From positions 1 through 56,108 of the IMG/VR virus record IMGVR_UViG_3300031565_000040: 56,108 nt of DNA; one strand, given 5' to 3'. Positions 25,599 through 48,560 of this stretch are shown piece by piece (position 1 is the stretch's first letter; each line of letters starts with the position of its first letter). The position numbers were made by a program, and so were the translations under genes. The DNA is from a virus (lineage: Duplodnaviria > Caudoviricetes). The notes beneath the pieces are model-generated. The model did no database searches and was not told the DNA's origin. It saw nothing but the letters and a program-made list of their open reading frames with translations.

Positions 25599-25600
25599 AA

Positions 25601-25735: not shown

Positions 25736-25747
25736 TGGAGAATTATT

Positions 25748-26749: not shown

Positions 26750-26766
26750 AGAAAGGAGGCACTCTT

Positions 26767-30200: not shown

Positions 30201-32582
30201 GCGAACATAAACATTCTCAACGATGAATGTACGGGCACGGAAGCAATTACGATTACATCAACTCTTGGCGGTATTGACGTTGACGCCCATGAAGATATAA
30301 ATATTACTCTTCACGCCGAGAGCGCCGATGAGGATATTATCCTTTTGACAACCGGAACATCGGATAGTCATATCTCGATTACAGCAGACGGTTCTGACGA
30401 CAATGCCTTGGCGCTTATTGCAAGTGTGGCGGGTATCGACATAGACGCTGCCGGCGTACTGACGATGGATGCCGACGACGATATGACGATTACCGTAGCG
30501 GCAGAGTCCGATGAGGACTTGACTATCCAGTTGCAGAACAATGTCGATGCAAGCATTTTAATTAGCTCTGCGGGAAGCGGAACGGATTCGCTCAGTCTTA
30601 CAACGGTGACAAACGGCGGCGATATTGTTATCAGCTCCAACGACAAAATAGATATGGATTCGACGGGTACGTTTGCCCTGAATGCGGCCGGAGATACCTT
30701 GCTGATTCAGGTGGATTCCGACGGCGCAGACGATGATTTAACTATCAAAGTCGATGGCGATGATGATTCCTCTATCATTCTTGACAGCGACGGTTCCGGC
30801 GCCGATGCGATTAGTTTACAGGCTTCTCATGCAACGACAGGCGGTATTGACGTTGATTTCAAGTCGGGTAACTTTACTCTTACCGGCTCAGGAGCAAGCG
30901 CCGATGTAATCGTAGACTGCGACCTTTTCAGTATAGACGGTACAGGTTCGGCTAATATCACTGTTGCCGCAACTGAAGCCGGTGAAGACCTTACTATCAG
31001 TCAAACCGGTACGAATGCTTCGAGTGTTGAAATTGTATCATCGGGCCGATGTGCGGATGGGATTAAATTGCATTCCAATGGTGATGCAACTTCCGGTATT
31101 TACATACATTCTCAAACCGGAACCGCTGCATCGACAGCGACTGAATCTGATGCCGCTATTCAGCTTTATAGTCAAGTCGGTGGTATAGGTCTTCTGTCGG
31201 CTCTTAACGCCGATGATTCTATCAGGATTGAGACAAACGGCGGCGACGATGAGAATATCACGATACGCGCCAATCAGGGAACCGGAACCGACTCGATTTA
31301 TATATTGAGCGATGAAGGCGGTATCGAGATTGAGGCGACCGCAAGTACGGCGGCAGGCGCAGGGGCATCTGCCGTTCAATTGACCGCTTCGTTGGGTGCT
31401 ATTGAATTGACTTCGGGATTAGATGCTACCAATGCGATTAAGTTGACTGCCAATGGTAATACAAACTCTGATATTAACATCTGGAACGATACCGGTAGTA
31501 CATCAGATTCGATTAAAATATTAAGCGACCTTGGCGGTATTGCCGTTACAGCGAGTGACGATGCGATTGTGTTGACGGCAGACGGCGCTACTGTAGGCGA
31601 TATTACTATTGACGGCGAGAATAAGGTCACGATTGTTTCAGCCGACCTCGATGCCGAAGGTATTTACATCCACGAGAATTCGACAAGCGGTACGGCCGGC
31701 TCGATAAAGATTCATGCCGATAAAGGTATTGCTGAAGCTACCGGAGCATCTTCGGTAACGCTTCTTAGCGACGTTGGCGGTATCAATTTGAAAGCGGCGG
31801 CCTTAACGAGCGAGAGTTCGATTTGGATTGAGTCCATTGCCGGTGGTGTTAATATAGATGCCGCCGCCGGTAAAGACGTCGATATTGACGGCGGGCAGAT
31901 TCTTCTCGAAGCCAACCACGATATAGCCAGTGCAATTTCCTTAATTACCAATACCGGTACATCCGAGACCATTGTAATTACTAATACTTTAGGCAATGCG
32001 ACGGGTGCAATCACCTTAGAAGCGACTGCCGGAGGTATTTCACTTAGTGCTTTATCTGGAATGGACTTCGGAGAAGGTGCCGTTGTCAATGTTGGCGATA
32101 TTTCGGTTGATGATGTTATCGCCGATGCCAACGACAACGTAGTTCTCAGTGCGGTCAAGATGCTTGTGGTTTCGATTTCCGTCGATGACGATCCCGCTAC
32201 CGATTTCCAGTATGACAATACTCAGGAGAACAAAGTAGAACAAGGTATAAGGGTTGGCAGAATTCCAGCCAATTGCATGATTAACTCTGTATTTGTTTTA
32301 TGTACCGAGACTATTACGGCTGGAGGTCAATTTGCCACTGAGATTGGTACTGCTACTGGAGGCGATCAGATTTTAACTACTTCGGATTGTGATACCGCTG
32401 ATGACATTATGGGCACGGCAGCCGCAGAGATACCGGAAATAGCTGTTACCGGCTCCATTATAGATGTTTACGTTAGTGGCACTCCGACTACAAATGACTT
32501 TGATGAAATAACGGCAGGTAGTTGGGACGTTTGCATCGTCTACACGGATTACGCCGCTGCATTAGCGCAGACGGGTACTTAA
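27243..32582 (+). CDS. 1779-aa acidic beta-repeat protein with Sec signal peptide (head-fibre or adhesin-like)
   Basis: AAGGAG RBS; MKKLILITIMAVLAFSTLAGA; many AI.L.A..GGI.IDA repeats. Confidence 0.85.
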   Translation: MKKLILITIMAVLAFSTLAGAALTYGPEYYRKRISNAGSGYADSDPVYLFMNEVDENLISSGGAASVLFTPGTAPTGAEGLVYYDDASDTLMLYSGASGPWKTIDLAGASNLDTAYNNGNTITVDGDALTFTAGAGTNNGVLTLVQSNTGAYEGLKITNAGTDPSIEIDGSGTGDDITGTGDTWTISEAGVGSFVGLISGASDIVMENSDIFSNGTNNTFTFAGNEATVEDLSIGLGVNTNIVTLSSSTGATTIDWGAMTTASGMTTITGDAAIFTIGSTGTSAGHDVIIQQAGVTDQQLVLQSSGNATNALRLLASAAGIDIDATGSTLTITNTADGADDDITIEQDGDQNASIILTSDGTGGDAISLISSSATGDIKVASADEIDIDAASTIDIAIAGLATQDFIVTNTGGSIIMTATEDIADGIYLHSTTGGIDIVADGAAAKDLDLTCTNGSVIVTAGEANSDAIKLNASAGGVNIDALAAYDVDIAGGQVLISSLDNAASAIALTTNVNTLETIVVTNTKGTAAGAITLTATAGGVDIDAAAAKEINIAGGNVAIVNKTAGATAITAITNVDTTDQIVVTNTKGTNEAAIDITATAGGIDIDAAAGKNVAINGGQILIESEDDGASSIQLKTNTGNTETIVILNSQGAGDDSINIDSTAGGLDVDVAKSLALTSSEGALDSVVITSTNGGIDLITTGAVATEDIDITSSASVNITSAENIAAAIVIATTGGGGAAETIDITNNQGITSSLTTETDAAIQLEATVGGIGLYSGLSGADAIRLETAGAAAQMTLQAIAGVGASATGEEDAAIQLYAQAGGIGLASGLAAADAIRIEAQGANGQITIQNKLGITASSATQFDASIQLYSEAGGIGLHSKLNGADAIRIEEGGGTGGTINIHANTGNAVADGAASINLLSDVGGIGLKATGLASANAIWIQAAAGGVNIDAQAAYDVDIDGGQIFLTSSHNVPDAIKIHSDSGANANINILNDECTGTEAITITSTLGGIDVDAHEDINITLHAESADEDIILLTTGTSDSHISITADGSDDNALALIASVAGIDIDAAGVLTMDADDDMTITVAAESDEDLTIQLQNNVDASILISSAGSGTDSLSLTTVTNGGDIVISSNDKIDMDSTGTFALNAAGDTLLIQVDSDGADDDLTIKVDGDDDSSIILDSDGSGADAISLQASHATTGGIDVDFKSGNFTLTGSGASADVIVDCDLFSIDGTGSANITVAATEAGEDLTISQTGTNASSVEIVSSGRCADGIKLHSNGDATSGIYIHSQTGTAASTATESDAAIQLYSQVGGIGLLSALNADDSIRIETNGGDDENITIRANQGTGTDSIYILSDEGGIEIEATASTAAGAGASAVQLTASLGAIELTSGLDATNAIKLTANGNTNSDINIWNDTGSTSDSIKILSDLGGIAVTASDDAIVLTADGATVGDITIDGENKVTIVSADLDAEGIYIHENSTSGTAGSIKIHADKGIAEATGASSVTLLSDVGGINLKAAALTSESSIWIESIAGGVNIDAAAGKDVDIDGGQILLEANHDIASAISLITNTGTSETIVITNTLGNATGAITLEATAGGISLSALSGMDFGEGAVVNVGDISVDDVIADANDNVVLSAVKMLVVSISVDDDPATDFQYDNTQENKVEQGIRVGRIPANCMINSVFVLCTETITAGGQFATEIGTATGGDQILTTSDCDTADDIMGTAAAEIPEIAVTGSIIDVYVSGTPTTNDFDEITAGSWDVCIVYTDYAAALAQTGT

Positions 32583-33316: not shown

Positions 33317-33724
33317 ATGAGACGCTTTACGTGCTTTTTACTTTTATGCGCCTTGAGCGGAACGGCTTTAGGCGGGTCGATATGTCCGTTTACGACAATC
33401 TTCATGCGTACTTTGTTAGATGATGCAACGGCTTCGGCGGCGAGAACGACTTTGGGACTTGGTACGACTGATTCTCCGACGTTTGTGAAAGTCACGTTAT
33501 CCGGCAATGAAATCAACGTAGCTACGTCGCAGATACCGAGTTCGGCAACTGCGGCGGGAAATGCCGGTGATATTGCGTGGGGGTCGGATTATATCTATAT
33601 ATGCGTGGCCGGTAATACGTGGAAACGGTCGGCCTTGACTACATGGGGCGGTCTACCGGAAAACGTAATCTTTGCCGGAGAAAACGTCATTTTTGCCGGA
33701 GAACAAGTTATATATTATCCATAA
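33317..33724 (+). CDS. Fibre-like protein with signal peptide
   Basis: MRRFTCFLLLCALSGTALG; RTLLDD...AARTTLGLG and GDIAW..DYIYIC...NTWKR fibre motifs. Confidence 0.75.
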   Translation: MRRFTCFLLLCALSGTALGGSICPFTTIFMRTLLDDATASAARTTLGLGTTDSPTFVKVTLSGNEINVATSQIPSSATAAGNAGDIAWGSDYIYICVAGNTWKRSALTTWGGLPENVIFAGENVIFAGEQVIYYP

Positions 33725-33733
33725 GGAACGATT

Positions 33734-34708
33734 ATGAAAAAGCTATTGATTTTACTCATATTGTTAATGTTTTCAGCAACAGTCTTAGCAGACCTTACAG
33801 GAACGGAAGGTCTTGCGATTGACCTTTCAAGCGCAGGAGCCGGGACTGATATTACTATTGCCTTCGACCCTACCGAGCTTTTAGGAAACCGTACATGGGG
33901 TGACGCTTCTACCGATACGATAGTCTGGACGTGGAACAAGGCCACGGGGACAGACCCTACGATTACCTTTAACAGCGGTTCGATAGCCTTACCGGCCTTG
34001 ACATTAGTTACGCCATTGGCCCTGAATTACGGCGGGGCCGGGGCGGACATTTCAGGCTGGTCGGGGATTGTTGCTGTTTCCGGTGGGTCTGCCGTAGAAG
34101 TAGACACATTTGCGGAGATTGATACGCAAATTGCCGACAAAGCCCTTGTGAATAAAGCCGATGGTGCGGTGTGGCTCGGCATACATGATTACGGAGGGGC
34201 GGATTTGGAACTACCTCAAGCATCACCCGCCGTTCCCGGCGTGGATGGTGGCATTGAGATTGACTTCACAGACGGCACGGTAGTCATTCAGCACGGAGCG
34301 GCACATGCCGAATTAGCGGCTTCCACTGACGTTGTGATAGGTAAGCTCATAAAGTCATGGTCTGGTACAATCTTCGAGCCTGATAATGTGAACGATGTAC
34401 TGACCGTCAAGGCAATCAATTCTATCCAGTATCCTCACGGTGTTGTTATTACAGCCGTTTATCTCGGCGTCTCATCGGATACGGGATACGTATTAACAGT
34501 CCAGAATTTCGACGACTTTGATACGATAAACGCTGCGAACGGGACGATAGACACAGTGACTTATTCCGCCGATACGACGGGAGAAATCATAGATACGACA
34601 CCAACATACGCAACGATAGCGGCGGGGCAGATAATTATGATTAGCATTCCGGCTACAGATGTGGACTGGATACATTTTGAGATTTATTACTACGAACCGG
34701 CGGCATAA
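33734..34708 (+). CDS. Fibre-like protein with signal peptide
   Basis: MKKLLILLILLMFSATVLA; PLAL.YGG.GA fibre motif. Confidence 0.75.
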   Translation: MKKLLILLILLMFSATVLADLTGTEGLAIDLSSAGAGTDITIAFDPTELLGNRTWGDASTDTIVWTWNKATGTDPTITFNSGSIALPALTLVTPLALNYGGAGADISGWSGIVAVSGGSAVEVDTFAEIDTQIADKALVNKADGAVWLGIHDYGGADLELPQASPAVPGVDGGIEIDFTDGTVVIQHGAAHAELAASTDVVIGKLIKSWSGTIFEPDNVNDVLTVKAINSIQYPHGVVITAVYLGVSSDTGYVLTVQNFDDFDTINAANGTIDTVTYSADTTGEIIDTTPTYATIAAGQIIMISIPATDVDWIHFEIYYYEPAA

Positions 34709-34723
34709 ATGGGGGTTATTAAA

Positions 34724-35530
34724 ATGAAACGATTACTGATTCTTTATTTTGTATTTTGTATTCTGTGTTCTGTTTCTTTGGGCGATAACGACTTTGGGGA
34801 TGTTAACTGTGTCGCTCTTTGGAGACTTGAGAACGGAGCGCTTACGGTCGATTCAAAAGGCGGCAACACCCTTACAAATGACGCAGTTGTGGCAGATGCA
34901 GTAAATTATAAAGAAGGGGAAGCGTCTGGAGACTTTGAGTGGAGTTCGTCGGCCTTTATGACCATAGCTGACGCTGATCTTGATGCCGGATTTCCTCTCA
35001 AGGATGGCGATTCAACAAAAAAAATATCTGTATGTGCTTGGATTATGCCGGAAAGTTTACCTACCGAAGGTTGCTTTTTTGCAAAATGGGACCATGCTGG
35101 TTTGAAAAGGCAATTGCAAATACTACAACTTGGAAGCCCTAGCGATATAAGAGTTTATATAGGTTATAATGGCGGTGTATCCTATGAAGAAGTAGTTACA
35201 CTCAATACGAACATGGTCGTTAACCAGTGGTATCACATCGGTTTTACATTTCAAGATTCAGACAAATCATGGCGTCTTCGCGTTTGGGACGAGTCTGGCG
35301 AAAGTGTGATGGAGGATACTGGCAATACGATAAATAATATAAACATAGAAGATTCATTTTTTACGTTAGGTTGTGTATCGGATGGGATAAATCATTTTGA
35401 TGGCCGCATAGATGAGGTGGTGGTTTTTAATGATATTCTAACTTCTGATGAAATCGACCAGATAAGGGTAGGCACTTACGGAGTTGCTGCCGGTGGCGGT
35501 GGTCAGGTGATAATCATATATGAAGACTAA
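34724..35530 (+). CDS. LamG/concanavalin-like lectin-fold protein with signal peptide
   Basis: MKRLLILYFVFCILCSVSLG; SVCAWI.P, WYHIGFT, FDGRIDEVVVFN..LT.DEI. Confidence 0.85.
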   Translation: MKRLLILYFVFCILCSVSLGDNDFGDVNCVALWRLENGALTVDSKGGNTLTNDAVVADAVNYKEGEASGDFEWSSSAFMTIADADLDAGFPLKDGDSTKKISVCAWIMPESLPTEGCFFAKWDHAGLKRQLQILQLGSPSDIRVYIGYNGGVSYEEVVTLNTNMVVNQWYHIGFTFQDSDKSWRLRVWDESGESVMEDTGNTINNINIEDSFFTLGCVSDGINHFDGRIDEVVVFNDILTSDEIDQIRVGTYGVAAGGGGQVIIIYED

Positions 35531-36515
35531 AATTATAATGTGTTCTATATTCTTCGTTTTGTGTTCTGCTGTGCAGGGAGCTAATGAAATCTGCGCCGTC
35601 GCGCCGGGCATTACAAACGCTTATGGCGTCGTAAGAGAACCGGATGGCGATGTCTGGTACGTCACAGGGCAGGTTTTCGAGGTGTGGGGAACGGGTGCTC
35701 GAACGGCTGCGGATTACGACATTGCATTGGTGGACAAGTCGGGCGGTATGTTAGTTGGGGATATGGATACGAGTATTTCAGCCGGATACTATCACATAAT
35801 AACACATTATCGGGTGGGTGCTAATCCCGCCGATACCGACCCTGCCGTGTGGCAGGAATACGGATACTGGAGCGGAACGGTTTGGCAACCCTATACACTA
35901 AAGACTATCGAAGATAAAGTTGATGATTTACCAACCGCTGCCGGGACAGCCGATGCCGTATGGGACGAGGCTATGGCCGGACATACTGGCGAGGCCACTT
36001 TCGGCGGTGAATTACAAACACTCGACCCGAACCTTACTTTGGTATTGGCGGATACGGCCGAGCTTCAAACCGACTGGCACGATGGCGGGCGGCTCGACCT
36101 TCTAATAGACGCTATTAAGGCGGAGACCGACCTAATAACTATCCATTCGACTACGGTAGCCGAGGCCAACGATGCCAACGAATTCATTCTGACTGATGGT
36201 ATAGGTACAGATGTTAACGATTCCTGGAACTATTCGGTGATTATCATTCAGGACGCCGACGACGGCCACTGGGAATCGAGATTCATTTACGAATGGGACA
36301 GCGATAAGGAAGTTGAAGTCGATGAGACTCTTGGCTTCATTCCGGCGGCGGGTGACGTTGTTCATATCATGGGGACTGGATACGGGGGATTTTTGTACCG
36401 GATACTTTCGACCATTCAGCAGGCAAGAGGCGTTCTGAATGTTATTGATACTACGGGAACTTCAAGAGCGGTTGGGGGCGTAACTCGAATAGACGCTATG
36501 GGTGACGACCCGTGA
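35520..36515 (+). CDS. Acidic virion-associated protein with signal peptide
   Basis: MKTKIIMCSIFFVLCSAVQG; ADAVWDE and ADTAELQTDW..GGRLD motifs. Confidence 0.75.
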   Translation: MKTKIIMCSIFFVLCSAVQGANEICAVAPGITNAYGVVREPDGDVWYVTGQVFEVWGTGARTAADYDIALVDKSGGMLVGDMDTSISAGYYHIITHYRVGANPADTDPAVWQEYGYWSGTVWQPYTLKTIEDKVDDLPTAAGTADAVWDEAMAGHTGEATFGGELQTLDPNLTLVLADTAELQTDWHDGGRLDLLIDAIKAETDLITIHSTTVAEANDANEFILTDGIGTDVNDSWNYSVIIIQDADDGHWESRFIYEWDSDKEVEVDETLGFIPAAGDVVHIMGTGYGGFLYRILSTIQQARGVLNVIDTTGTSRAVGGVTRIDAMGDDP

Positions 36516-36534
36516 CACAATTCCTGGGGGGATT

Positions 36535-37410
36535 ATGGCGGATAATGAAGAAAAACGGGCCTTATGCAACAGGGCGATAACAATTCTAACTGCCGGTATG
36601 ACCGCTCAGGCGGGGATTCTCCATACAGAGATAACCGATGAGCAGTTCGCCGACTATACTTCGGTAACGACCGACCAACAGATAAAGCTTTTATGCTTTT
36701 TGTACGAGCCGGTCTTATTGAAGGTCATTCTCGATATTCAGCCGGACTTCGCTAAACAGTTCGCAGACTTGGGGAATGAGATTTGTATCAATAAAGAGGT
36801 AGGCGACTGGGGACTTCTATTCGAGTTGCCGAGTAACTTTATAGAAGATGAAAATGCGTTAATTGCCCAAATCAGTCAGGCCAATAGGAAAACTAAATAT
36901 GACTGCAAGATTCTGACTTTCGACGGTTACGCCCATGTCGTTAAGGGTACGGACGAACAGTCGTGGTATTGTAAGACCGACCATACGGCGGCGGCGGCCA
37001 ATAAACCGATTACCGGTGCAGATTACGCAACCTATTGGACTCTCTATAATACCGACGACTCTTACGGTGCTGATTGGGTATCTGGATGGTCTTACAAAGC
37101 CTCTCAGGACGGCAAATTATTAGCGGCCAATTCCTATTCCAATCTTGATGGTGACAGTGCGTATATAGAGTATCTCGCCTACATTCAGGCCGGTATTTCC
37201 GACAAGCCCGCGTATTATCCCAATGCCTTTAAGAACGCCTTCTGTACGAGACTTGCAGCTGAGATGGCGGAGGATGGTCACGATTACGAGCGCAGAAGAA
37301 AACTTATGGAGGAATACGAGTTAATTGCCAAGCCGCGGGTGTGGCAGGTTCAGAACAGGAACGATTTCGAGGAAACAAGACCGACATTTTTAGAGTCAAG
37401 GACGATATGA
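36535..37410 (+). CDS. Tail tubular protein A / adaptor (T7 gp11-like), no signal peptide
   Basis: ALCNRAI..L, FELPSNF, F..AF..RLAAEMA; directly before the nozzle gene. Confidence 0.75.
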   Translation: MADNEEKRALCNRAITILTAGMTAQAGILHTEITDEQFADYTSVTTDQQIKLLCFLYEPVLLKVILDIQPDFAKQFADLGNEICINKEVGDWGLLFELPSNFIEDENALIAQISQANRKTKYDCKILTFDGYAHVVKGTDEQSWYCKTDHTAAAANKPITGADYATYWTLYNTDDSYGADWVSGWSYKASQDGKLLAANSYSNLDGDSAYIEYLAYIQAGISDKPAYYPNAFKNAFCTRLAAEMAEDGHDYERRRKLMEEYELIAKPRVWQVQNRNDFEETRPTFLESRTI

Positions 37411-39935
37411 TGAAAAGGTTCATACTTATATTTATATTCTGTACGGCAGCGATGGGCGCGAGCCTTACGCAAACAATTTCTCTCAATAGTTTCAACGCCG
37501 GTGAACTCTCGCCTCTTATGAACGCACGGGTGGACTATCCGAAATATAAACTCGGCGCAAAGACTTTAGAGAACATGATAGTAAGGGCGCAAGGGCCAAT
37601 ATCGAGGAGGCCGGGCACTAAATACATCGCTTCGGTAAAAGACGATACGGACGCTACAAGACTGATTCCCTTCGAGTATTCGACTATCTACGCCTATATT
37701 GAAGAAGTAGGCGACAAATACGCGAGGTTCTACCGTACCGTTGATGGTGTAGCCGGTCCGATTGTAACTACTTATTCTGCATGGGCCACATCCACGGCTT
37801 ACAGTGTAGGTGCGTTAGTGACACACAGCGGTTACTATCGGTGTTTGGTAGCCCATACATCAGATGATTGGGATACCGATTTAACTGCCGTCAAATGGGC
37901 AGTAACCGCCGGGGCTACCGATCTTGCCTACGAGATAGTCACACCGTGGGACGAAAGCGACGTCTTTGAGCTTCAATTCTGTCAGGATGCCGAGACGATG
38001 AGAATTGTCCATCCCGACTACGAACCCTACAAACTCACGAGGACTGGTCATACCTCATGGACGTGCACGCCGATAAACTCTACCACCGGCCCTTTTCTCG
38101 ATGAGAATAACGATACTACGTGGACTCTGACATCAAATAAGACTACGGGTACGGGCGCTACTATTACTTCAACGGACGACCTTTTCTTGCCCGACCCAAA
38201 CTACGTAGGTGCGTTGTTTCAAATAAGTCATTCCCTTGCCGCCGGTTCGGTAACGAAGTTATTTTGGTCGTCTGGTGATTCAACTTCGGATTCGATTACA
38301 GTCCAGAAGTACCGGTACTACGATGTCATTACAAGCGGTTCATGGGCGGGCACTTTCAAAATACAAAGGTCTTACGGTGACGATGTTTGGGAGGATGTCT
38401 ACAGTATCCGCTATACGTATAACGGGAATATCCAATATTCCGGGCAGGAACTTGAAAAGACCTGCCTTTACCGAATGAAAATGGTAGACCAGTATTTAAC
38501 AAGCCACAACCTACGGCATTACGAGGGTATGTGCTACGGCAATTTTAACGCTCGCGGCTTTATGAATAACGGAGTGGTCGAGATAACCAGTGTTACGAAT
38601 ACGAAGGTCGCTACTGCCGATATAAAGATAGCTATAGGAGCGGCCGATACTACTACTTATCACTGGTCGGAGGGTGCATGGAGCAATTACCGGGGCTGGC
38701 CGAGGACGGTCGAGCATCACGAGCAGAGAGTCATTTACGGCGGCTCAGCATCTTATCCCCAGGCTATATGGGCCTCTATTATAGCGACTCAGGACTCCGA
38801 TTACGATGACTTCACTGCCAATACCGAATCCGATTCCACAGGGAATTTAGGAGGCCCGGATGATATTGCGTGGACATATACATTGCCGGGCATGAATCCA
38901 ATTCAATGGATGAAGTCAACCGAATATTTAATGATAGGCACGACTTCGGGGGTAGGGAAATTAGGCCAGCCGGACAAACCAATTACTCCCAACTTCCCCC
39001 CGACTTTTCGTATCCAGAACCATAACGGGTGCGCTTATATTCAGCCGAAAGGCGCGGTTGACGCCCTTCTCTACATAGAGAGGGGCGGTCAGAAAGTCAG
39101 GGAACTCGCCTTTGCATACTCTTCAGATAAATACGAAGCGCCTGATATGACCGTCTTGGCCGAGCACATAACAGGCGATGGCATAGTCGAGATAGATTTT
39201 CAGAACCGGCCGGAACCTATCTTATGGTGCATCAGGGAAGATGGTCAGTTGCTTTCATTCACCTATCACAGAAAGCACGATGTCCTTGCGTGGTCGAGGA
39301 ACGATACGGGCATTGCAGACAAGTTCAAATCGGTAGCGGTGATACCCGGTACTAACGAGGACGAACTTTGGGCGATAGTTGACAGGACGGTAGATACTTA
39401 CGTTGAGCAGTTCCAGCCGTGGGACTGGGGGACAGACCAGAACGACTGCTACTTTGTGGATTGTGCGGTCGATGATATAACGAATTTGATTCATATCGAG
39501 GGCGAGACGGTCGCTCTATTTGCGGACGGCCGGCCGATAGGCACTTACACGGTCTCAGGAGGCGAGATAAGTCCATCGGGTAGTTATACCTATACTACAG
39601 TGGGGCTTCCTTATACATCCGTTTTCGAGACAATGCCGCTTACAGCCTCATCGAGTCATGGTTATATAAACGCAGAATATACAAGGATAGCATCTCTCAT
39701 TGTTGACTTTTACAAGACTTTAGGCTGTCACATAGGCCCGGATGCAACCAATACCCACGATTTCAAGTTCTCCAACGATTCTTTCGCCACGACTTTGGAT
39801 GTTGTAACAGACTTTAAGGTGTCACCGTATCTGTGGGGAACGAAACGGTCGCCGACAATCTATTTTCAGGAATCCGATCCTATCCCTCTGACTATCAGGG
39901 GCGTTTATCCGAGAGTTATAGTAAGTTATGATTAA
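37407..39935 (+). CDS. Tail tubular protein B / nozzle (T7 gp12-like) with N-terminal signal peptide
   Basis: SFNAGELSP, RRPGT, RLIPF, GWPR....EQR, AWSR, VGLPYTS; preceded by MMKRFILIFIFCTAAMG; AAGGA RBS and ATGA coupling. Confidence 0.9.
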   Translation: MMKRFILIFIFCTAAMGASLTQTISLNSFNAGELSPLMNARVDYPKYKLGAKTLENMIVRAQGPISRRPGTKYIASVKDDTDATRLIPFEYSTIYAYIEEVGDKYARFYRTVDGVAGPIVTTYSAWATSTAYSVGALVTHSGYYRCLVAHTSDDWDTDLTAVKWAVTAGATDLAYEIVTPWDESDVFELQFCQDAETMRIVHPDYEPYKLTRTGHTSWTCTPINSTTGPFLDENNDTTWTLTSNKTTGTGATITSTDDLFLPDPNYVGALFQISHSLAAGSVTKLFWSSGDSTSDSITVQKYRYYDVITSGSWAGTFKIQRSYGDDVWEDVYSIRYTYNGNIQYSGQELEKTCLYRMKMVDQYLTSHNLRHYEGMCYGNFNARGFMNNGVVEITSVTNTKVATADIKIAIGAADTTTYHWSEGAWSNYRGWPRTVEHHEQRVIYGGSASYPQAIWASIIATQDSDYDDFTANTESDSTGNLGGPDDIAWTYTLPGMNPIQWMKSTEYLMIGTTSGVGKLGQPDKPITPNFPPTFRIQNHNGCAYIQPKGAVDALLYIERGGQKVRELAFAYSSDKYEAPDMTVLAEHITGDGIVEIDFQNRPEPILWCIREDGQLLSFTYHRKHDVLAWSRNDTGIADKFKSVAVIPGTNEDELWAIVDRTVDTYVEQFQPWDWGTDQNDCYFVDCAVDDITNLIHIEGETVALFADGRPIGTYTVSGGEISPSGSYTYTTVGLPYTSVFETMPLTASSSHGYINAEYTRIASLIVDFYKTLGCHIGPDATNTHDFKFSNDSFATTLDVVTDFKVSPYLWGTKRSPTIYFQESDPIPLTIRGVYPRVIVSYD

Positions 39936-42426
39936 ACTACTTATAATATTATTTTTATGCCTAACACCTGAGCAGAAAGCGTGGGAAAACATTCAGTTAC
40001 CTAACGATTCCGTTCTTGCATGGTCGCGCCATAAGACGGGATACAATCAGGATGATAAGTTTCTTTCCGTAGCGACTATTCCCGGATCAGGTGGAGAGGA
40101 TGAGGTCTGGGTGATAGTCGAAAGGACTATAGATGGTGTAAAGCAAGTCAATGTCGAGCAATTCCAGCCCCGCGACTTCGGAGACCAGAACAATGCTTGG
40201 TTTGTCGATTGTGGCTTAGTGGGATGGAGCGATGGCGGTGGTGGGTTAATTAACATAATTGAACCTACCGATGATGTTACGGTGGGCGAATATCCGACTT
40301 TGCAGGAACTTACTGACGATGAGATACCTGATACCCCGGCAGAGCCGGAAGATACGGCGCTTGTCGGAGCAACGAACGTCAATGATTACGCCGGATTACA
40401 GGCTATGACCGGATCAGGTCATTATAATATCACTGGCGATATAGATTTGGAAGGTGAAACGTGGATTCCGATAGATGATTTCAGTGGGGTTATAGAAGGT
40501 AATGGTTTTACAATTTCAAATTTAACTCATACCGCAGAAGCATCGGCATTCGATACCGGCATGTTCAATAATCTACTTTCCGGCGCGGAAATACGCAATT
40601 TGACATTGAAAGATTTTGCCATTACAGGTGATTTTGGGACGGGTGCTTTGGCAGGTAACGGAGTTGGGGATATTGTAATTAAAGATGTTAATGTAACAGG
40701 TTGCACAATTGAGGGTTATTGCTATCTTGGTGCACTCGTTGGTTTTCTGGAAGAAATAACTTCCGGTGGTATTTATGATTGTGATGCAATTGATTGTACT
40801 ATATCGGGTACGGACTGGTCAGGCGGCTTGTGTGGATATATTGAAATTGATAACGATGCAACAGATGACTTTAATATTGTCAACTGTAGTGTTGCTGACG
40901 GCACTCTTACAGTATTGGATGGTACTTATTGCGGTGGCTTGGTCGGTTCGGGAGAGGGAACAATCCATACTACCCCGGATAGATATATCACTTTTCATAC
41001 ATGCAGTTCCTCTATGAACATAATAGTAGGGGACACAGATGAAGCGCAGTCTCTTGGCGGATTTATTGGCCTTGCAGACTGGTGCGATTTCATCAGTTGT
41101 TCCGCAACAGGTAATATAGATTATATAGGTTCAGATAGTGGCGGCATTCCTTATGGAATAGGCGGTTTTGTCGGATTTGAAACAGGCGTAGGCACGTATA
41201 TAAATTGCTATTCAACCGGCGATATAACAATGGACGCAGAAAACTTTTCTCTAATGCAGCTCATTGGAGGCTTTGTCGGAAAATGCGACCAGACAGCAAC
41301 TCAGATATTTACTCGATGCTATTCAACTGGTGATATTACTATGACAAATGTTGGCAGTATGTCATGGCATGGAGTTGGTGGTTTTATGGGAGGCTATCTT
41401 GGTACTGGCGGAACAATTAGAAGATGCTGGTCTGAAGGCGATATTAGTTTAGACGACGAAGGAGTGCCGGGAGTAACATACAAAGGCGGACTTGGAAGTT
41501 TTATAGGCATGATATGGCATAGCGATACCGGGGCAGGAACAATCGAAAATTGCTATGCCTGGGGCAGTATAACAATCGAGACACTGAACGAGAACGATGA
41601 TGATTTGGGCGTTAGCGGCTTTTTGGGAAGTATAGCAAAATTAGGGACATACACATTGACGAATTGCTACGATGCCCAGACCGATACGGCGACAGGTTCG
41701 GGATATACAAGTCAAATCCCAACGGGAGATTATTCCAAAGGTTTGGTCGGATGGCTTACGACGTCTGTTACTGTAACCGATACTGCAATATTCTGGGATA
41801 CAGAGACATCAGGTATAGACGAAGATGATTATGCCGTTGGCCATATAACGACATGGATGCAGACACAGGCGAACTACGAGGCCGCCGGTTGGGACTTCGA
41901 TACGATATGGGTTTTGGATGAAGTGACTACCCCTGGCGAGCCTGGCGACAGCGAACCTAATACATGGAGCGGCATGGATCATGCTATTGGTATGGAAGTA
42001 TGTGTTTACGCCGATGGCCGACCGATAGGAGTTTATACTGTAGATGCCAACGGTGTCTTGGATTTAGGTGCGGAATACGAGACTGTAATAGCCGGTATAA
42101 ACTATTATTCAACTTATGAGTCTTTTCCCTTAGTCACGGAGACCAACTTCGGTTTGAGTACCGGCCAGCAGGCGAGGATAATGGATATTACAATAGACTT
42201 CTACGAGTCTTTAGGCTGTCACGTGGGGGTTGACAGGACTAACAGTACCGACTGGATTTTTAGTAAAGACGATTTCGCAACGAGGATCGACCTTGTGACC
42301 GAATACAAAAAAGGTTCTTTCCTGTGGGGCACTACGCGCGAGCCGATAGTCTATTTGTGGGAATGGGAGCCTGTGCCTCTAACCGTGAGGGCAATATATC
42401 CGAAAATGGGGGTAACAAGTGATTAA
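39928..42426 (+). CDS. Paralog of the nozzle C-terminal region with an inserted GLUG-type beta-helix
   Basis: Both ends align to the last ~215 aa of the nozzle; interior has GGLVG/GGFVG and CYSTG repeats plus GWDFDTIW. Confidence 0.85.
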   Translation: MIKLLIILFLCLTPEQKAWENIQLPNDSVLAWSRHKTGYNQDDKFLSVATIPGSGGEDEVWVIVERTIDGVKQVNVEQFQPRDFGDQNNAWFVDCGLVGWSDGGGGLINIIEPTDDVTVGEYPTLQELTDDEIPDTPAEPEDTALVGATNVNDYAGLQAMTGSGHYNITGDIDLEGETWIPIDDFSGVIEGNGFTISNLTHTAEASAFDTGMFNNLLSGAEIRNLTLKDFAITGDFGTGALAGNGVGDIVIKDVNVTGCTIEGYCYLGALVGFLEEITSGGIYDCDAIDCTISGTDWSGGLCGYIEIDNDATDDFNIVNCSVADGTLTVLDGTYCGGLVGSGEGTIHTTPDRYITFHTCSSSMNIIVGDTDEAQSLGGFIGLADWCDFISCSATGNIDYIGSDSGGIPYGIGGFVGFETGVGTYINCYSTGDITMDAENFSLMQLIGGFVGKCDQTATQIFTRCYSTGDITMTNVGSMSWHGVGGFMGGYLGTGGTIRRCWSEGDISLDDEGVPGVTYKGGLGSFIGMIWHSDTGAGTIENCYAWGSITIETLNENDDDLGVSGFLGSIAKLGTYTLTNCYDAQTDTATGSGYTSQIPTGDYSKGLVGWLTTSVTVTDTAIFWDTETSGIDEDDYAVGHITTWMQTQANYEAAGWDFDTIWVLDEVTTPGEPGDSEPNTWSGMDHAIGMEVCVYADGRPIGVYTVDANGVLDLGAEYETVIAGINYYSTYESFPLVTETNFGLSTGQQARIMDITIDFYESLGCHVGVDRTNSTDWIFSKDDFATRIDLVTEYKKGSFLWGTTREPIVYLWEWEPVPLTVRAIYPKMGVTSD

Positions 42427-42775
42427 ATTAAAACCATATCTACCGACAGACGCCGTGATTTTGACCGGCGACAGGATGTGCGCCGAATTAGCCCAATTGA
42501 ATCAAATATCAGGGCCGGGCTTTACCTTATGTGACGGTAACAGGCCTTTGGCTTCAGGCGGTGTGAGGATATACGGGGTAGCCGAGGCGTGGTTCGTACT
42601 CGGCGATGAGGCTAAGGAAAAGTACCTTTTGATGGTAATGCGTAAGATTAAAAAAGAGTTAGAGAAAATCCAGCGTCGAGAGAAACTTTATAAAATCTAC
42701 GCCGAGGATACGAAGAGCGAGAATTTCCTTCAGCATCTGAGATTCGTAAAGAAGAACAATATATTCGTGAGGTAA
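42419..42775 (+). CDS. GNAT-fold / T7 gp13-like protein
   Basis: GGV..GVAEAW and FLQHLRF; position after the nozzle. Confidence 0.65.
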   Translation: MIKLKPYLPTDAVILTGDRMCAELAQLNQISGPGFTLCDGNRPLASGGVRIYGVAEAWFVLGDEAKEKYLLMVMRKIKKELEKIQRREKLYKIYAEDTKSENFLQHLRFVKKNNIFVR

Positions 42776-42779
42776 TAAG

Positions 42780-43256
42780 ATGGCGTTAGCAACAGCCGGA
42801 ATGATGATCGCCGGTACGGGCATGGGCGTGGCGGGTTCTATCATGCAGGGCAGGGAAGTCAACAGGCAGGCCAGAGACGCCGCCCGTGAGAGGCTATATG
42901 AGGCCGCCGTACTTAAAACAGCGGCGGGCGAAAAAGCACACGGACTCGCACAGGAGCGGTCTTATGCAATGGGTTCGGCAAGGGCCACTGCTGCAAAAGC
43001 CGGTGTCAAAGGTACGGGTTCTGTAAAGACCCAAAGGAATCGAATATCCGCGATGTACACACAGAAAATAGCGAATATGGGTTTGGAGACGGGCCATAGG
43101 ATAGGCTTTTTGGAACGGGAGGCCGAAGAACTCAAACGCAGGGGCAGGAGTGCAAAAAGGGCTGGTTATTGGGGTGCGGGTGCAAGTCTATTAAGCGGTG
43201 GTGCTCAATTCGGAAGTACATTTAAATCCGGCGGCGGCAAACTATTATTCCGGTAA
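42780..43256 (+). CDS. Internal virion protein (gp14-like)
   Basis: Gly/Ala-rich hydrophobic termini; A.AGV..GS motif. Confidence 0.75.
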   Translation: MALATAGMMIAGTGMGVAGSIMQGREVNRQARDAARERLYEAAVLKTAAGEKAHGLAQERSYAMGSARATAAKAGVKGTGSVKTQRNRISAMYTQKIANMGLETGHRIGFLEREAEELKRRGRSAKRAGYWGAGASLLSGGAQFGSTFKSGGGKLLFR

Positions 43257-43260
43257 GATT

Positions 43261-44772
43261 ATGGCAAACGTATTTAGTGGACGTACATATCGAAGTGAAG
43301 GCGCGGCGATGGCGGGTTTTGGCCGGTCGATGATGCAGGCTGCCGGGGCGATGGCGGCTATCGGCAGGGAAGAACAGCAAGAGGAAGAGAACATACAATT
43401 CAAAAACGAGATAGCAAGAGCCGGTGCGCAGGAAATATCGGGGTGGGAAGGTTTTAAACTCCGCCTTTCGGAGTTTCAGGACAATCCAGAGAAGGCACTT
43501 GAGGCTTTTGATAACGAATATCCCAATATAGAAAAGAGCGTTCTTACCGAGACTTCACTTGACCGCGCCCAATCGGCAATGACTAACGACCTTATCGTTA
43601 AAAAAGCGGAATGGCGGGCATGGGTAGCGGATTGGGCACAGGATGAGAACAAAAGGAACGTAGGCGTCAATTACGAGGCCGGACGCAAGAACGCGATGAC
43701 CTCTAAAGTCTGGATAAATACAGATGACCTCGCCGACAGTCTTGCATATAATTACGGCAATGCTCAGGACGCTTACGAAGGCGGATACCTCACCGATGAG
43801 CAATTACAATTCAATACAAGACAATTATTCCAATACCAGATAAAAGACTACCTTCTCCAGTTGGGCGATGAGAAGTATATCAATAATCCCAATTCATTCG
43901 TAGAGGAAACCGGCCTTAATATCCCCGATGCCGAACGGGAGCTTTACGGGTCGGAAGATATAGCGAAGCTGAAGCAAGACTTTGAGATCAGGAAGAACAT
44001 AAACGAATATGAGGCCAAAGTTCTAAGAGAAAAACGGGAGGCCGAAGTCGAATCAGAGGCACGTGACTTTGCAGTTGCCAATGATTTTAAGTCCGGTATA
44101 GACAAGATTAACTCCGCCCGTCACGAACTCGGCGCAGACTGGCATACGAACGCCCTTAATAAATATAAGAACGCTTTTAGTATTATAAACACTACGGGCG
44201 AGAATCCGTTTACGAAGACCCAGAGTTGGGACAGGTTCGGCGAAATCAGGCAGAAGATATTAGACAGGGAAGTAAGGAGCGAAAAAGAGATACGAGATTA
44301 CACCGGCAAGAAAGACGGCTACGCAATAGCTCAGGAAAAATATCTGCTTGATTTATATAACGGCAATGAGAGTTCCGCCAAAGCCTTCGAGGACTCGGCG
44401 GCTGCCCAGAATCTCAAGGCTTTAATAAATTATAATATAGCCGAAGAAAAAGACGAACCCGATATTTACCAATTCGCCACACAGAGGGGTTTGGGACTTC
44501 TGCAGGATACCATTACAAACAATCCCGATTGGACAGACCGGGAAAAGAAGGAAGCCGCTTTACGGATAGGGCGTCAACTCGAACGGGAGTACGAAGACGG
44601 GACGTTGGAAACAGCTTTAGAGAATGTCATCAAAGGCCCGCTATATAGTAAGTTAAAACCGAGCGGATTTATTAAGCCGGGGGGAAAGAAGAGTATTCTA
44701 AGAACGGCAACTAATCCCAAAACGGGCGAAAGGATAGGTTGGAACGGTACGGAATGGATACCAATACAATAA
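43261..44772 (+). CDS. Internal virion protein (gp15-like)
   Basis: Helical; C-terminal TATNPKTGE..W.G..W; position. Confidence 0.7.
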   Translation: MANVFSGRTYRSEGAAMAGFGRSMMQAAGAMAAIGREEQQEEENIQFKNEIARAGAQEISGWEGFKLRLSEFQDNPEKALEAFDNEYPNIEKSVLTETSLDRAQSAMTNDLIVKKAEWRAWVADWAQDENKRNVGVNYEAGRKNAMTSKVWINTDDLADSLAYNYGNAQDAYEGGYLTDEQLQFNTRQLFQYQIKDYLLQLGDEKYINNPNSFVEETGLNIPDAERELYGSEDIAKLKQDFEIRKNINEYEAKVLREKREAEVESEARDFAVANDFKSGIDKINSARHELGADWHTNALNKYKNAFSIINTTGENPFTKTQSWDRFGEIRQKILDREVRSEKEIRDYTGKKDGYAIAQEKYLLDLYNGNESSAKAFEDSAAAQNLKALINYNIAEEKDEPDIYQFATQRGLGLLQDTITNNPDWTDREKKEAALRIGRQLEREYEDGTLETALENVIKGPLYSKLKPSGFIKPGGKKSILRTATNPKTGERIGWNGTEWIPIQ

Positions 44773-47700: not shown

Positions 47701-48560
47701 GGGAACGTAAGCTGTGGGAACTGGAAGGAAAGAAACCGTTTGCTGTTAAAATCGGTGATAAGTGGAGAAGCGTTTATGTTTTAGGCCCGATAGGTAATGT
47801 CCTTCTTATAGGTGGTTTTTTCCAGAAGGCTCTAACGGAATCAGGCAGTCCATCGGAAGCGATTGTAACGGCCCTGTCGGGAGGTGCTAAGTCATTCAGT
47901 GAGCAGACTTTTGTTATAGGAATGAGTCGGGCCGTAGATGCAATGAAAGACCCGGAGCGTTCGTTCGATAGATTCTTTTCAAGTATGGCCGGTTCTTTTG
48001 TGCCTACTATTCTCTCTGATATTGCTTCGGCTACAGACTACACGGAAAGGACATATAAGGGACCGTGGCAAGCCGCAGTTAAAAGGGTTCCAGTCGCGAG
48101 AAGGACTTTAGAAGAGAGAATTGATGTATTCGGTCAGGACCTACCACGTTACGGGGGCAATCCTTTAGAGGTAATGATAGACGCCACGCGCCCGGCCAAG
48201 ATAAGGCAGGATGTTGTAGTCGATGAGATCCGCAGACTTTGGGACAAAGATGTTAAGGTAGCTCCGACCCAACTTGGCAATAGGGATGGTTATAAAATCC
48301 TAACACAGGAAGAAAACACTATCCTTTGGCGACAAGCGGGACGTTTGGCCTATCAGAATTTGTTCAAGTTGATACAGAAGCGGTCTTATCTCCGCAAAGA
48401 CGACAAAGGCAAGGGCAAGATGATAGAAGAAATTATTAAAGAAGCCAAAGACCTTGCACGGGCGGAAGCGGCACAAGTCAAGTTAAATCAGGGCAAGACT
48501 TTGAAGGAACTAAAAGAGGATGGCTTAGTGACAGTTGATGTAGAAAAAGAAATGAAATAA
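44754..48560 (+). CDS. Large internal virion / DNA-ejection protein (gp16-like) containing a J-domain
   Basis: LPEGFVLD repeats; HPD J-domain at about 45621-45770; VPFSRTP and D.FGQ motifs with hydrophobic segments. Confidence 0.8.
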   Translation: MDTNTITLPEGFVLDEPELPEGFVLDEPAIPDPREEEKQIKETVDISYDLGVPVFEVDTNYKQLADKPEKRPPSKAPMSLVAYTPSRWEKFKDFFVSKREPLPPNADRIEKITRAFDIGMSAPLRAFMKFSKGMTLGAPDLMWAAIKRITPDDMWVDEVKNMTLDEAMDWAGGYDPSGFQKSVGEIAEFVGRLRTVAPIAQKIGIIGNTPKDITVLDKAFESAKLFGAAAVGEQVAKYASTKIDPTEAEYGYEGPKAVLRDMAIGAIFSLVHSGVKGAWSKLTPTEHQRALKLLGLKEGASTNEIKSAARDLFRKYHPDKAKGFQAEFERVVKARDTLIKGEPQDIVFRGQKIVFKPKLLPGETVEQQAIRLAKKPTEVVKAAPTKPIPAPTKPVEPIKVPEPTVEGEVVAQTPEDAQRALRIWQEYLRTGDDAILEDMPPGAEIPISPEDVSLSLAESLDTSEKRVEFKKNMADAINLVERGGAEFRDLTAEVIAYQKVWGKTDPLPTDMLRYIGMAPSELTPTPPAEPIKEAAPTVEAKQAPAEAKGKVRDILGGVEPITQINKALKDAVEIRPKVEAERKAELRKRVGAAAGTLKSTLKKGEMGAEEAIGRSTGLLKGPLSNARYESIRGVMEEASPGAVDNAFRSIGESKKLKYFEVVGTKEAFAKLIDGIPITLREVEMIKKHFGIEMGKIAKERAEKSSLSDRAFALWRAGLLTGIKTSGLNTLSNLTHALTETAKDVIATPVDIVASLFTGERTVGFTVRGIPGGMKKGWSKGWEYLKTGIDERGLEKKLDYEPVNFGESKTGKLKQVYVETIFHIMGAEDQPFFYGAMSRSIRSQAIAQGRNKGLKGQELRDFVEQARKTPTQDMLENGIHDAEIAVFQNRTILGDIARAIQKAPIARWTVPFSRTPSAVAMQIINYTPVGPIKEVMAQIHKGEFNQRDFVHAVGRAGVGIPALAIGALLFTKGLMTLDYPKGERERKLWELEGKKPFAVKIGDKWRSVYVLGPIGNVLLIGGFFQKALTESGSPSEAIVTALSGGAKSFSEQTFVIGMSRAVDAMKDPERSFDRFFSSMAGSFVPTILSDIASATDYTERTYKGPWQAAVKRVPVARRTLEERIDVFGQDLPRYGGNPLEVMIDATRPAKIRQDVVVDEIRRLWDKDVKVAPTQLGNRDGYKILTQEENTILWRQAGRLAYQNLFKLIQKRSYLRKDDKGKGKMIEEIIKEAKDLARAEAAQVKLNQGKTLKELKEDGLVTVDVEKEMK

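Follow-up and report, generated by a model that had tools for sequence, protein, structure and literature searches.

Why would the gene for a tail nozzle, the protein that seals the DNA channel, begin with what looks like a secretion signal? Such a signal is hard to reconcile with completion of the virion in the cytoplasm, where, to our knowledge, all studied tailed phages finish their particles. In the literature covered, mostly outside subscription journals, no description of signal peptides on a tailed-phage nozzle or tail module was found. We analyzed a 56,108-nucleotide stretch of viral DNA (the window) together with related loci. The sequences compared show a genuine, in-frame, conserved leader that is signal peptide-like, clade-wide, and restricted to the tail, and conserved leaders on the nozzle and on nearly all outer tail proteins suggest tail assembly outside the cytoplasm.

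The nozzle gene and its start codon

The record is rated 100% complete, with a phage genome of about 53 kb and one full-length nozzle (Table 1). The nozzle matches phrog_376 (“tail protein”) with an E value of 2.7e-154 over profile positions 6 to 708 of 712, beginning at the predicted mature N terminus, and PDB chain 8ck1_A (“Tail Nozzle”) with an E value of 9.6e-74; in that chain the family motif lies at residue 15. The family numbers 23,073 cluster representatives at E ≤ 0.001. With the known podophage nozzle (tail tubular protein B, phrog_376; Carin-1 gp44, PDB 8CK1), which has the same role as T7 gp12, the protein shares homology over its whole length, an FNAGELSP-type motif, and a gene order that runs from the adaptor through the nozzle to internal virion proteins. 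Here the adaptor is directly upstream and internal virion proteins of phrog_418 and phrog_6651 are downstream, an order identical to that in the annotated record BK063671. The protein differs from Carin-1 gp44 in its 17-residue signal peptide-like extension and from known podophage nozzles in a CBM_5_12 insertion at about residues 124 to 156. Residues 16 to 842 of the ESM Atlas model of the nozzle (pTM 0.80) align with a “Phage_nozzle” cluster model (TM 0.82); with leaderless “Phage_nozzle” models (TM 0.82 to 0.84), the alignment begins only at residue 16 to 21, which places the leader outside the nozzle fold.

Table 1. Positions of the structural genes and of the nozzle start region in the window
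Feature	Position	Strand	Remarks
Head module	21891..27228	+	Portal, protease/scaffold, major capsid protein, Bbp16-like protein; leaderless
Giant tail or fibre protein	27243..32582	+	1779 aa; leader MKKLILITIMAVLAFSTLAGA, then ALTYGP
Small tail-fibre-like protein	33317..33724	+	Leader MRRFTCFLLLCALSGTALG
Tail-module protein	33734..34708	+	Leader MKKLLILLILLMFSATVLA
Laminin_G_3 (ConA-like lectin) protein	34709..35530	+	Leader (MGVIK)MKRLLILYFVFCILCSVSLG
Tail-module protein (ORF 35520)	35520..36515	+	Leader MKTKIIMCSIFFVLCSAVQG, then ANEI
Adaptor (gp11-like, phrog_394-like)	36535..37410	+	Leaderless; likely start MADNEEKR inside ORF 36502..37410
Shine-Dalgarno-like AAGGA	37398..37402	+	4 nt ahead of first ATG, 7 nt ahead of second
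Tandem ATG ATG start	37407..37412	+	First ATG at 37407, second at 37410
Tail nozzle gene	37407..39935	+	842 aa; single full-length copy in record
Nozzle leader	37407..37457	+	MMKRFILIFIFCTAAMG; n-region MMKR, core FILIFIFC, c-region TAAMG
Predicted mature nozzle N terminus	37458..37514	+	ASLTQTISLNS, then family motif FNAGELSP
Paralog of nozzle's last ~220 residues	39928..42426	+	~580-aa GLUG-repeat insertion
Four genes downstream of paralog (42419, 42780, 43198, 44739)	42419..48560	+	Leaderless

The preliminary description had reported a leader ahead of SFNAGELSP, an AAGGA ribosome-binding site, and ATGA coupling to the adaptor, and every one of these elements is present. The adaptor stop codon (TGA, 37408 to 37410) overlaps the first nozzle ATG, and the frame from this start reads MMKRFILIFIFCTAAMGASLTQTISLNSFNAGELSP; the ESM Atlas record of the nozzle begins at the second ATG. 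A purine-rich run also precedes the leader ATG in five related loci, and in the window and five relatives the leader start and the upstream gene's end overlap or are only a few bases apart.

Could the leader nevertheless be an annotation artefact, with the in-frame methionine at residue 16 (MGASL) as the true start and the codons upstream of it untranslated? Gene callers often choose the longest open reading frame, and a start at this methionine would give an N terminus of typical length. It had been noted beforehand that no clear ribosome-binding site precedes the internal methionine, and the 15 bases ahead of its codon at 37452 (TTCTGTACGGCAGCG) indeed contain no GGAG- or AGGA-like run and nothing comparable to the AAGGA and ATGA coupling of the upstream start. 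In one related locus (L001), no ATG, GTG, or TTG follows the leader ATG ahead of the motif, and methionine is absent from the 16 residues preceding the motif in 69 of 101 leaders. Strain variants in other soil sequencing runs differ within the leader by one synonymous and one Phe-to-Leu change, with no indels and the frame kept. Open, in-frame, signal peptide-like leaders are also found in most assessable homologs, at identities down to 35% (see below). The artefact reading is close to refuted, and the leader is almost certainly translated and under selection. A dual start at the Met/Leu codon of position −2 was likewise rejected, because that codon differs among loci (ATG, CTG, TTA, or TTC).

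Several database entries of the nozzle family appear to be truncated within the leader. The choice of start codon matters in this family.

Leader anatomy and distribution

The window nozzle leader ends in A-M-G, with alanine at −3 and glycine at −1, and signal peptidase I (SPase I) is predicted to cut between 37457 and 37458, so that the processed nozzle would begin ASLTQTISLNSFNAGELSPLMNAR. The proposal that cleavage here would restore the usual N terminus agrees with the family, since 11 residues would then precede the F of FNAGELSP, compared with 3 to 16 in leaderless relatives. Of 101 leader-bearing sequences, the window protein included, 99 have an n-region net charge of +1 or more; the median hydrophobic core is 12 residues long, and only 6 cores reach 19 or more. 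Cores this short fit a signal peptide and do not fit a membrane-spanning anchor, for which an uninterrupted hydrophobic span of about 19 or more residues without a cleavage site would be expected. The leaders instead combine the charged n-region, the h-region of about 7 to 15 residues, and the small, uncharged −3 and −1 residues of Sec-type SPase I substrates. At the sites picked in 104 sequences, the −1 residue is A (45), G (32), S (23), or C (4) and the −3 residue is A (29), L (25), V (12), S (11), I (11), T (9), C (5), or G (2), counts that describe the sites and are no independent test, because the heuristic used to pick them accepts only small residues there.

Other export classes fit less well. 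No lipobox ([LVI][ASTVI][GAS]C) is present in the nozzle leader, which reads F-I-F-C with F at −1, and the leader cysteine is replaced by serine in many homologs (STIALG versus CTVALG). The Tat twin-arginine motif (S/T-R-R-x-F-L-K) is also absent; most n-regions read MKK, MKR, or MKNK, and the strongly hydrophobic cores differ from the weakly hydrophobic core of a Tat signal. Codons 1 to 17 of the nozzle gene probably encode a Sec signal that is cleaved.

The n-h-c heuristic (K/R start, hydrophobic core of about 12 residues, small residues at −3 and −1) was passed by 104 of 116 assessable N termini, namely, the window protein together with its closest homologs (35 to 82% identical), versus 583 of 2,120 shuffled leaders; it is a lax heuristic, as 27.5% of shuffled leaders pass and the adaptors of two loci (L001 and L109) were flagged as false positives. 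The letters of the leader diverge among homologs while its properties are preserved. The outcome that was to count against the leader, close homologs that lack it or carry it out of frame, was not what the alignment returned. The nozzles of cultured phages and prophages and the solved Carin-1 nozzle are leaderless, and none of the cultured-phage matches (among 40 listed) covers the leader; they begin at query residues 14 to 28. On the tree, leader-bearing nozzles fall into two large blocks of 95 and 25 rows, and 13 changes of leader state are needed, compared with 32.5 when the labels are shuffled. Judged by these comparisons, the leader has long been present in a large clade of uncultivated phages. 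The preliminary description had spoken of a signal peptide “grafted” onto the nozzle. The extension at the N terminus does exist, is translated and conserved, and has Sec-like anatomy, but a recent graft in this phage is contradicted by the age of the trait in the clade and by its presence on almost all outer tail genes.

The six sequencing runs listed as containing this phage are all soil metagenome DNA, with no RNA run among them. In the species-representative genomes scanned, leader-bearing copies occur only on contigs of 7 to 45 kb, in MAGs of five phyla. Two host assignments were considered and rejected. Among 401 Planctomycetota genomes, a nozzle homolog was found in 12, and the six readable N termini were leaderless except on a phage-sized contig of one genome (G001). 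In the phylum of Verrucomicrobium BvORR034, 46 of 401 genomes had a homolog, and all 13 readable N termini were leaderless, with 17 of the 30 loci unread by the motif script. The phage carries integrase genes, and a scan of it for tRNA genes found none.

Signal peptide-like leaders across the tail module

Signal peptide-like N termini are not confined to the nozzle. Where the nozzle bears a leader (17 related loci), signal peptide-like proteins account for 53 of the 161 other large ORFs, and each of the 17 loci has at least two. The corresponding count for 56 loci with a leaderless nozzle is 17 of 480, within 9 loci. Two loci (L112 and L185) combine a leaderless nozzle with signal peptides on neighbouring tail ORFs, and fibre export therefore would not need nozzle export. 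In the window, as in five related loci (L001 and L003 to L006), no leader is present on the adaptor, the head proteins, or the internal proteins encoded downstream.

The leader of the giant protein and its LTYGP motif recur in four loci (L005, L108, L119, and L125); the first 500 residues of this protein had no match among 50,697 phage records. The family of ORF 35520 keeps both the leader and the mature N terminus ANEI(R/N)xF. Of 120 homologs of this ORF, 87 pass the heuristic; ANEI is conserved and begins immediately after the −1 residue, A or G, and one homolog without a leader starts M-ANEI. The nozzle paralog has a hydrophobic N terminus (MIKLLIILFLCL). Downstream of it, 42780 and 44739 match internal virion protein families, and 42419 (phrog_4177, annotated “unknown function”) and 43198 (no match) are grouped with them by position alone. 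The adaptor had no match in sequence searches of PHROG and PDB, so its identity rests on profile-profile comparison with the adaptors of leaderless relatives (hhalign 98.7%, E = 2.6e-16). The leaderless adaptor, too, carries a CBM5/12-like insertion.

Where the tail may be assembled

Leaders appear to mark nearly all parts outside the adaptor (nozzle, nozzle-like paralog, fibres, and adhesins), and proteins of the head or capsid interior (portal, capsid, adaptor, and ejection proteins) are leaderless. We postulate that SecYEG would export the tail subunits, that cleavage after A-M-G would give the nozzle its usual N terminus, and that the distal tail would fold and assemble in the periplasm. 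If the leaders are Sec/SPase I signal peptides, the exported distal tail would meet the DNA-filled, adaptor-capped heads, and dock on them, once lysis breaches the inner membrane. Export and cleavage of the nozzle are read from sequence here. We lean toward a real, cleavable Sec/SPase I signal on the nozzle that is part of a whole-tail programme. Assembly of the tail in the periplasm, with joining to the head at lysis, is a more tentative proposal, and so is the broader idea that an uncultivated clade of tailed phages may split virion assembly across the inner membrane, with lysis-gated joining as the last step. We infer a two-membrane host envelope, for which the sole hints are two lipoprotein-like phage ORFs (11177 and 49138, the latter on the minus strand) that carry lipoboxes. 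Oxidative folding was rejected as a reason for export: cysteine content does not distinguish leader-bearing from leaderless proteins, and neither a conserved cysteine pattern nor any other requirement for folding in the periplasm was found, with no cysteine among the near-invariant columns.

Several known systems resemble parts of this scheme. SAR endolysins and other Sec-exported lysis proteins are made late, use the host Sec machinery, and become active upon membrane disruption. They are enzymes rather than virion parts, and SAR domains, which are only weakly hydrophobic, leave the membrane uncleaved, whereas the leaders of this clade are short and strongly hydrophobic and are followed by an AxA/AxG-type site. 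The P22 tailspike can reportedly be added to heads in vitro, and T7 heads from gene 11 and 12 mutants are said to have been completed in vitro, so outer tail parts can join finished heads, as the mechanism needs; in P22 and T7, however, all parts are cytoplasmic and joining precedes lysis. P22 heads without the gp4, gp10, or gp26 tail parts reportedly lose their DNA. The nozzle of T7 is described in one study as the main closure of the DNA channel (PMC6702177). Together these make full heads that await lysis without a nozzle a real difficulty for split assembly. According to the same study, the first 45 residues of T7 gp12 contribute three strands to the adaptor-binding platform domain (PMC6702177), which would put any hydrophobic extension that is retained at the nozzle-adaptor interface. 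The Inoviridae coat proteins g3p and g8p are, as is proposed for the nozzle here, virion proteins with N-terminal signal sequences; they are inserted or exported through Sec/YidC and assemble outside the cytoplasm (PMC8310372). Inovirus virions are headless and are extruded through the envelope without lysis, whereas here a leaderless, icosahedral, terminase-packaged head would meet an exported tail.

The leader might instead be a membrane tether, uncleaved or cleaved late, that holds tail proteins at the inner membrane and so concentrates assembly in two dimensions or delays it, in the manner of SAR endolysins, until the membrane is disrupted. The leader has the n-h architecture and positive-inside orientation of such a tether, its sharing among outer tail parts is what colocalization predicts, and the phage has several small membrane proteins in its structural module (20066, 20822, 32598, and 48575). 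We nevertheless consider it unlikely. The cores are short, and an anchor has no need of a −1 position that is mainly A, G, or S, of a −3 position that is mainly A, L, or V, or of the ANEI placed directly after A or G in the ORF 35520 family. The cores are also rich in Leu, Ile, and Phe, unlike SAR domains, which are said to be Gly/Ala-rich.

Less probable still is one gene with two fates, in which the bulk of the protein is exported and works apart from the virion, for example in masking or destroying receptors on the producing cell or in superinfection exclusion, and cytoplasmic virions are built from copies that evade export or that arise from an internal start. The carbohydrate-binding and lectin modules (CBM_5_12, Laminin_G_3, and GLUG) in many leader-bearing proteins, the loci L112 and L185 with leaders on neighbouring tail ORFs only, and the in-frame methionine at residue 16 of the window nozzle would all suit it. 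The last of these has no Shine-Dalgarno-like run ahead of it, and an internal start is not generally available, given L001, the variable −2 codon, and the many leaders without a nearby methionine; nor is an off-virion role for a nozzle obvious. Hydrophobic segments occur in phage penetration proteins and offer a precedent for an N terminus that remains part of the virion and functions during infection, by membrane insertion or by bundling tail parts, as its presence on outer tail proteins in general might also indicate. In T7, however, the nozzle N terminus lies in the platform beside the adaptor, far from the tip that contacts the cell (PMC6702177). Specific packing would not tolerate the free divergence of the leaders, which keep only signal peptide properties, and the leader lies outside the part of the Atlas model that matches leaderless nozzles; we regard retention on the virion as very improbable.

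A cleaved export signal shared by the outer tail proteins remains the reading that we prefer, and the leaders point to compartment-split assembly coupled to lysis. If this is true, the clade would be the first tailed-phage lineage to finish its virion outside the cytoplasm. It would be a mistake to dismiss signal peptides on phage tail genes as gene-calling errors or as secreted “morons,” and the leaders provide a simple marker for a big, unexplored clade of soil and sediment podophages.

Identity and start of the nozzle gene

The gene at 37407 to 39935 encodes a tail nozzle, as had been proposed from the sequence: its 842-aa product matched phrog_376 (E 2.7e-154) and 8ck1_A, "Tail Nozzle" (E 9.6e-74). 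The phrog_376 match begins at profile position 6, directly after the leader, and in the solved nozzle 8ck1_A the conserved FNAGELSP motif runs from chain residue 15. PMC13730344 identifies 8CK1 as phage Carin-1, with gp44 as the nozzle and gp46 as the adaptor.

The start signals attributed to the leader are also in place. AAGGA lies at 37398-37402, the start is ATGATG (37407-37412), the first ATG of which is overlapped by the TGA of the upstream ORF (37408-37410), and the reading frame gives MMKRFILIFIFCTAAMGASLTQTISLNSFNAGELSP; no Shine-Dalgarno-like run precedes the internal Met codon (37452). In the window and the five relatives for which DNA was examined, the leader ATG is preceded by a purine-rich run and is no more than a few bases from the upstream gene's end, or overlaps it. 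One related locus (L001) has no ATG, GTG, or TTG between the leader ATG and the motif, and Met is absent from the 16 residues preceding the motif in 69 of 101 leaders. A hidden start at the -2 position was ruled out because that codon is ATG, CTG, TTA, or TTC, depending on the locus. The leader frame is intact, with no indel, in related-strain contigs recovered from three further soil runs; changes within the leader were one synonymous substitution (37427) and one Phe>Leu (37431).

The ORF upstream of the nozzle had no PHROG or PDB match. A profile built from it and five relatives matched a profile of leaderless-phage adaptors, which contains a CDS annotated phrog_394 (98.7% probability, E 2.6e-16), and on this profile comparison we identify it as the adaptor. 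Its true start is probably 36535, since relatives start MADN... Adaptors are ~290 to 300 aa long in the window, L001, and L003 and 196 to 215 aa long in leaderless relatives. A CBM5/12-like aromatic-rich insertion occurs both in the adaptor, which is itself leaderless (~residues 125-190), and in the nozzle (residues 124-156); the adaptor insertion is present in L001 and L003 and absent from L004 to L006. The extra part of the longer adaptors looks like a CBM5/12-type surface module, not a plug.

Conservation, type, and spread of the leader

The preliminary description held that a signal peptide had been grafted onto a core tail component, and we asked whether close homologs lack it or carry it out of frame. 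From the 120 best database homologs (35 to 82% identical), four N-terminally truncated fragments were removed (P0038, P0039, P0042, and P0053); assessable N-termini numbered 116, the window's own protein included. Signal peptides were called with a lax, shuffle-controlled heuristic of our own, the n-h-c test (net positive start, uncharged hydrophobic run, small residues at -3 and -1). It was passed by 104 of the 116 N-termini versus 583 of 2,120 shuffled versions of the same leaders, and the leader was not refuted. Seven of the 12 failures are short N-termini that are plainly leaderless, four have apparent starts called within the leader (e.g., P0102, MMTVPLTA, whose near-twin P0100 has the full leader), and in one, P0043, the leader is hydrophobic but contains no K or R.

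The predicted leaders have a median length of 21 residues, with a median of 10 residues from the cut to the motif F. In 99/101 leaders the n-region carries a charge of +1 or more; the median hydrophobic core is 12 residues long, and only 6/101 cores reach 19 or more. Sequence letters vary freely while the n-h-c properties are kept, which is how signal peptides evolve.

A lipoprotein signal was rejected because the nozzle leader has no lipobox and Cys is not conserved; a Tat signal, because the twin-arginine motif is absent and the core is strongly hydrophobic; and a stable membrane span, because the core is too short. Positive charge ahead of the core predicts an N-in, C-out topology, i.e., export. 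The ESM Atlas entry for the window's nozzle begins at the second ATG (model pTM 0.80), and its alignment with "Phage_nozzle" models that lack a leader covers residue 16-21 to 842 (TM 0.82 to 0.84), so the leader is predicted to be an appendage outside the nozzle fold. In T7, according to PMC6702177, residues 1 to 45 of gp12 supply three strands to the adaptor-binding platform. By analogy, a retained hydrophobic extension would lie at the adaptor interface, far from the cell-contacting tip, a point in favor of leader removal and against a role in penetration.

The nozzle family comprises 23,073 cluster representatives at E ≤ 0.001. Among the best 150, a scripted call found 49 leader-bearing, 57 leaderless, and 44 not assessable, and a by-eye check found at least 14 further rows with leaders. 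On a quick FastTree of 148 nozzles, leader-bearing proteins form two large blocks (95 and 25 rows), and nozzles from prophages and contigs with Proteobacteria, Lentisphaerota, Verrucomicrobiota, and Brocadia labels have no leader and fall elsewhere; placing the leader on this tree takes 13 state changes versus 32.5 with shuffled labels, two labels being wrong by threshold (L025, and P0011, in which the leader is present). All 212 phage records matching the nozzle are <60% identical to it. The 40 listed, which include Pelagibacter HTVC010P-type, BcepC6B, phiV10-type, and Ralstonia phages, start at query residue 14 to 28, and none aligns over the leader. A full-text literature search, with most subscription journals outside its coverage, did not turn up any account of a tailed-phage nozzle or tail module with signal peptides, which is not proof of absence.

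Leaders across the tail module

Textbook leaders also occur in the window on the 1,779-aa protein at 27243 and on ORFs 33317, 33734, 34709, and 35520. No leader is present on the portal, protease, capsid protein, Bbp16-like protein, or adaptor or on the four genes that follow the nozzle paralog, of which two match internal-virion-protein families. ORF 39928 is nozzle-like and its N-terminus is hydrophobic, yet it fails the heuristic. This second, partial nozzle gene (39928-42426, +) resembles the nozzle at residues 29-97 (59% identical to nozzle 626-688) and 681-832 (41% identical to 692-842), with ~580 aa of Cys-rich GLUG-type repeats between; its slot in L001 holds a leader-bearing ORF of 913 aa.

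We compared 103 related loci (17 with leader-bearing nozzles, 56 with leaderless nozzles, and 30 not assessable), counting same-strand ORFs of at least 150 aa other than the nozzle. Signal-peptide-like ORFs made up 53/161 in the leader-bearing loci, with at least two in all 17, and 17/480 in the leaderless loci, spread over nine of them; these counts contain false positives (two adaptors were flagged), and the motif search probably misread L125 and L183, which would be leader-bearing. In a second tail protein family, unrelated to the nozzle, 87 of 120 homologs of ORF 35520 passed the n-h-c test, and failures were mostly truncated or over-extended gene calls with the leader still inside. The mature motif ANEI(R/N)xF directly follows A/G at -1, and a leaderless homolog, P0191, begins M-ANEI. 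Judged from these sequences, the leader belongs to the tail as a whole. Four related viral contigs (L112, L185, L110, and L173) have a leaderless nozzle but one to four large tail-module neighbors with textbook signal peptides, and are possible intermediates in its spread. Another relative with a leaderless nozzle, L002 (BK063671.1; host given as Methanomicrobiales), has a signal-peptide-like ORF at 6905-7420 (MMKKERIGFMLLAFLAIFSFAGIYG|), two genes upstream of the nozzle.

The phage, its host, and a proposed export route

The window is a single 56,108-bp contig, a complete virus record (completeness rating, 100%) with a GC content of 44.6%, present in six soil-metagenome DNA runs. The phage is a podophage.

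Principal genes and gene blocks of the window
Feature	Position
Terminase	15811 and 17984
Portal	21891
Protease/scaffold	24705
Major capsid protein	25748
Bbp16-like protein	26767
Tail gene block, long	27243 to 42426	
Internal virion proteins	42780 to 48560	
Integrases	53095; 12609 (-)	

The window's ends repeat its start (1-300 versus 53349-53648, 99% identity, offset 53348; 2192-2454 versus 55846-56108, 94% identity, offset 53654), giving a unit genome of ~53.3 kb. The two copies differ by substitutions and by indels totalling ~300 bp, and the integrase gene is present twice (11-763 and 53095-54111). ORF 17666-17983 (+) stops where the large-terminase ORF 17984-19651 (+) starts, and both match phrog_2472 and phrog_38407; the latter ORF has a hydrophobic beginning (MKIRGILVSIIIGLLLPGG), with its PHROG match only from residue 26. 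This could reflect a split gene or a miscalled start. Between terminase and portal, ORFs 20066 and 20822 encode small membrane proteins whose N-termini are duplicated by a 119-nt exact direct repeat (20053-20171 and 20809-20927); ORF 20066 (region 20195-20506) also has a weak match to positions 217-311 of the nozzle profile (E 3.5e-8). The 1,273-aa ejection protein (44739-48560, +) carries a DnaJ J-domain (PF00226, residues 297-345, E 1e-8) with the HPD motif (..KYHPDKA..), which could recruit host DnaK on entry. Among the window ORFs that were run against PHROGs or Pfam, none was recognized as belonging to an endolysin family.

In species-representative genomes, leader-bearing copies were confined to contigs of 7 to 45 kb, in MAG bins of Pirellulales, Phycisphaerae, Neomarinimicrobiota, Desulfobacterales, and Dependentiae. 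Integrated prophage nozzles readable in 401 Planctomycetota and 401 Verrucomicrobiota-phylum genomes had no leader. Among the nearest Atlas clusters by features, two have few classified members, mostly Verrucomicrobiota, which we treat as a lead only. Two lipoprotein-like ORFs, 11177-11647 (+) and 49138-49320 (-), have lipoboxes (..FCYGC|S and ..FVAGC|T, respectively). These suggest that the host has the usual lipoprotein pathway, and both ORFs are candidate superinfection-exclusion or o-spanin-like proteins.

Leader-bearing and leaderless proteins are divided at the junction of adaptor and nozzle, which also separates parts that have to be cytoplasmic (head and packaged ejection proteins) from outward-facing parts. 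On the simplest and most likely reading, distal tail proteins would be exported by Sec and processed, would assemble in the periplasm, and would join adaptor-capped full heads once holin-type lesions open the inner membrane. The main difficulty is DNA retention by nozzle-less heads; in T7, the nozzle is described as the main closure of the DNA channel (PMC6702177). An oxidative-folding need as the reason for export was not supported by the data. We speculate that the advantage lies in exported adhesins masking or destroying receptors on the producing cell. L112 and L185, with leaders on neighbors of a leaderless nozzle, suggest that the leader arose stepwise and that exported parts can feasibly be added late.
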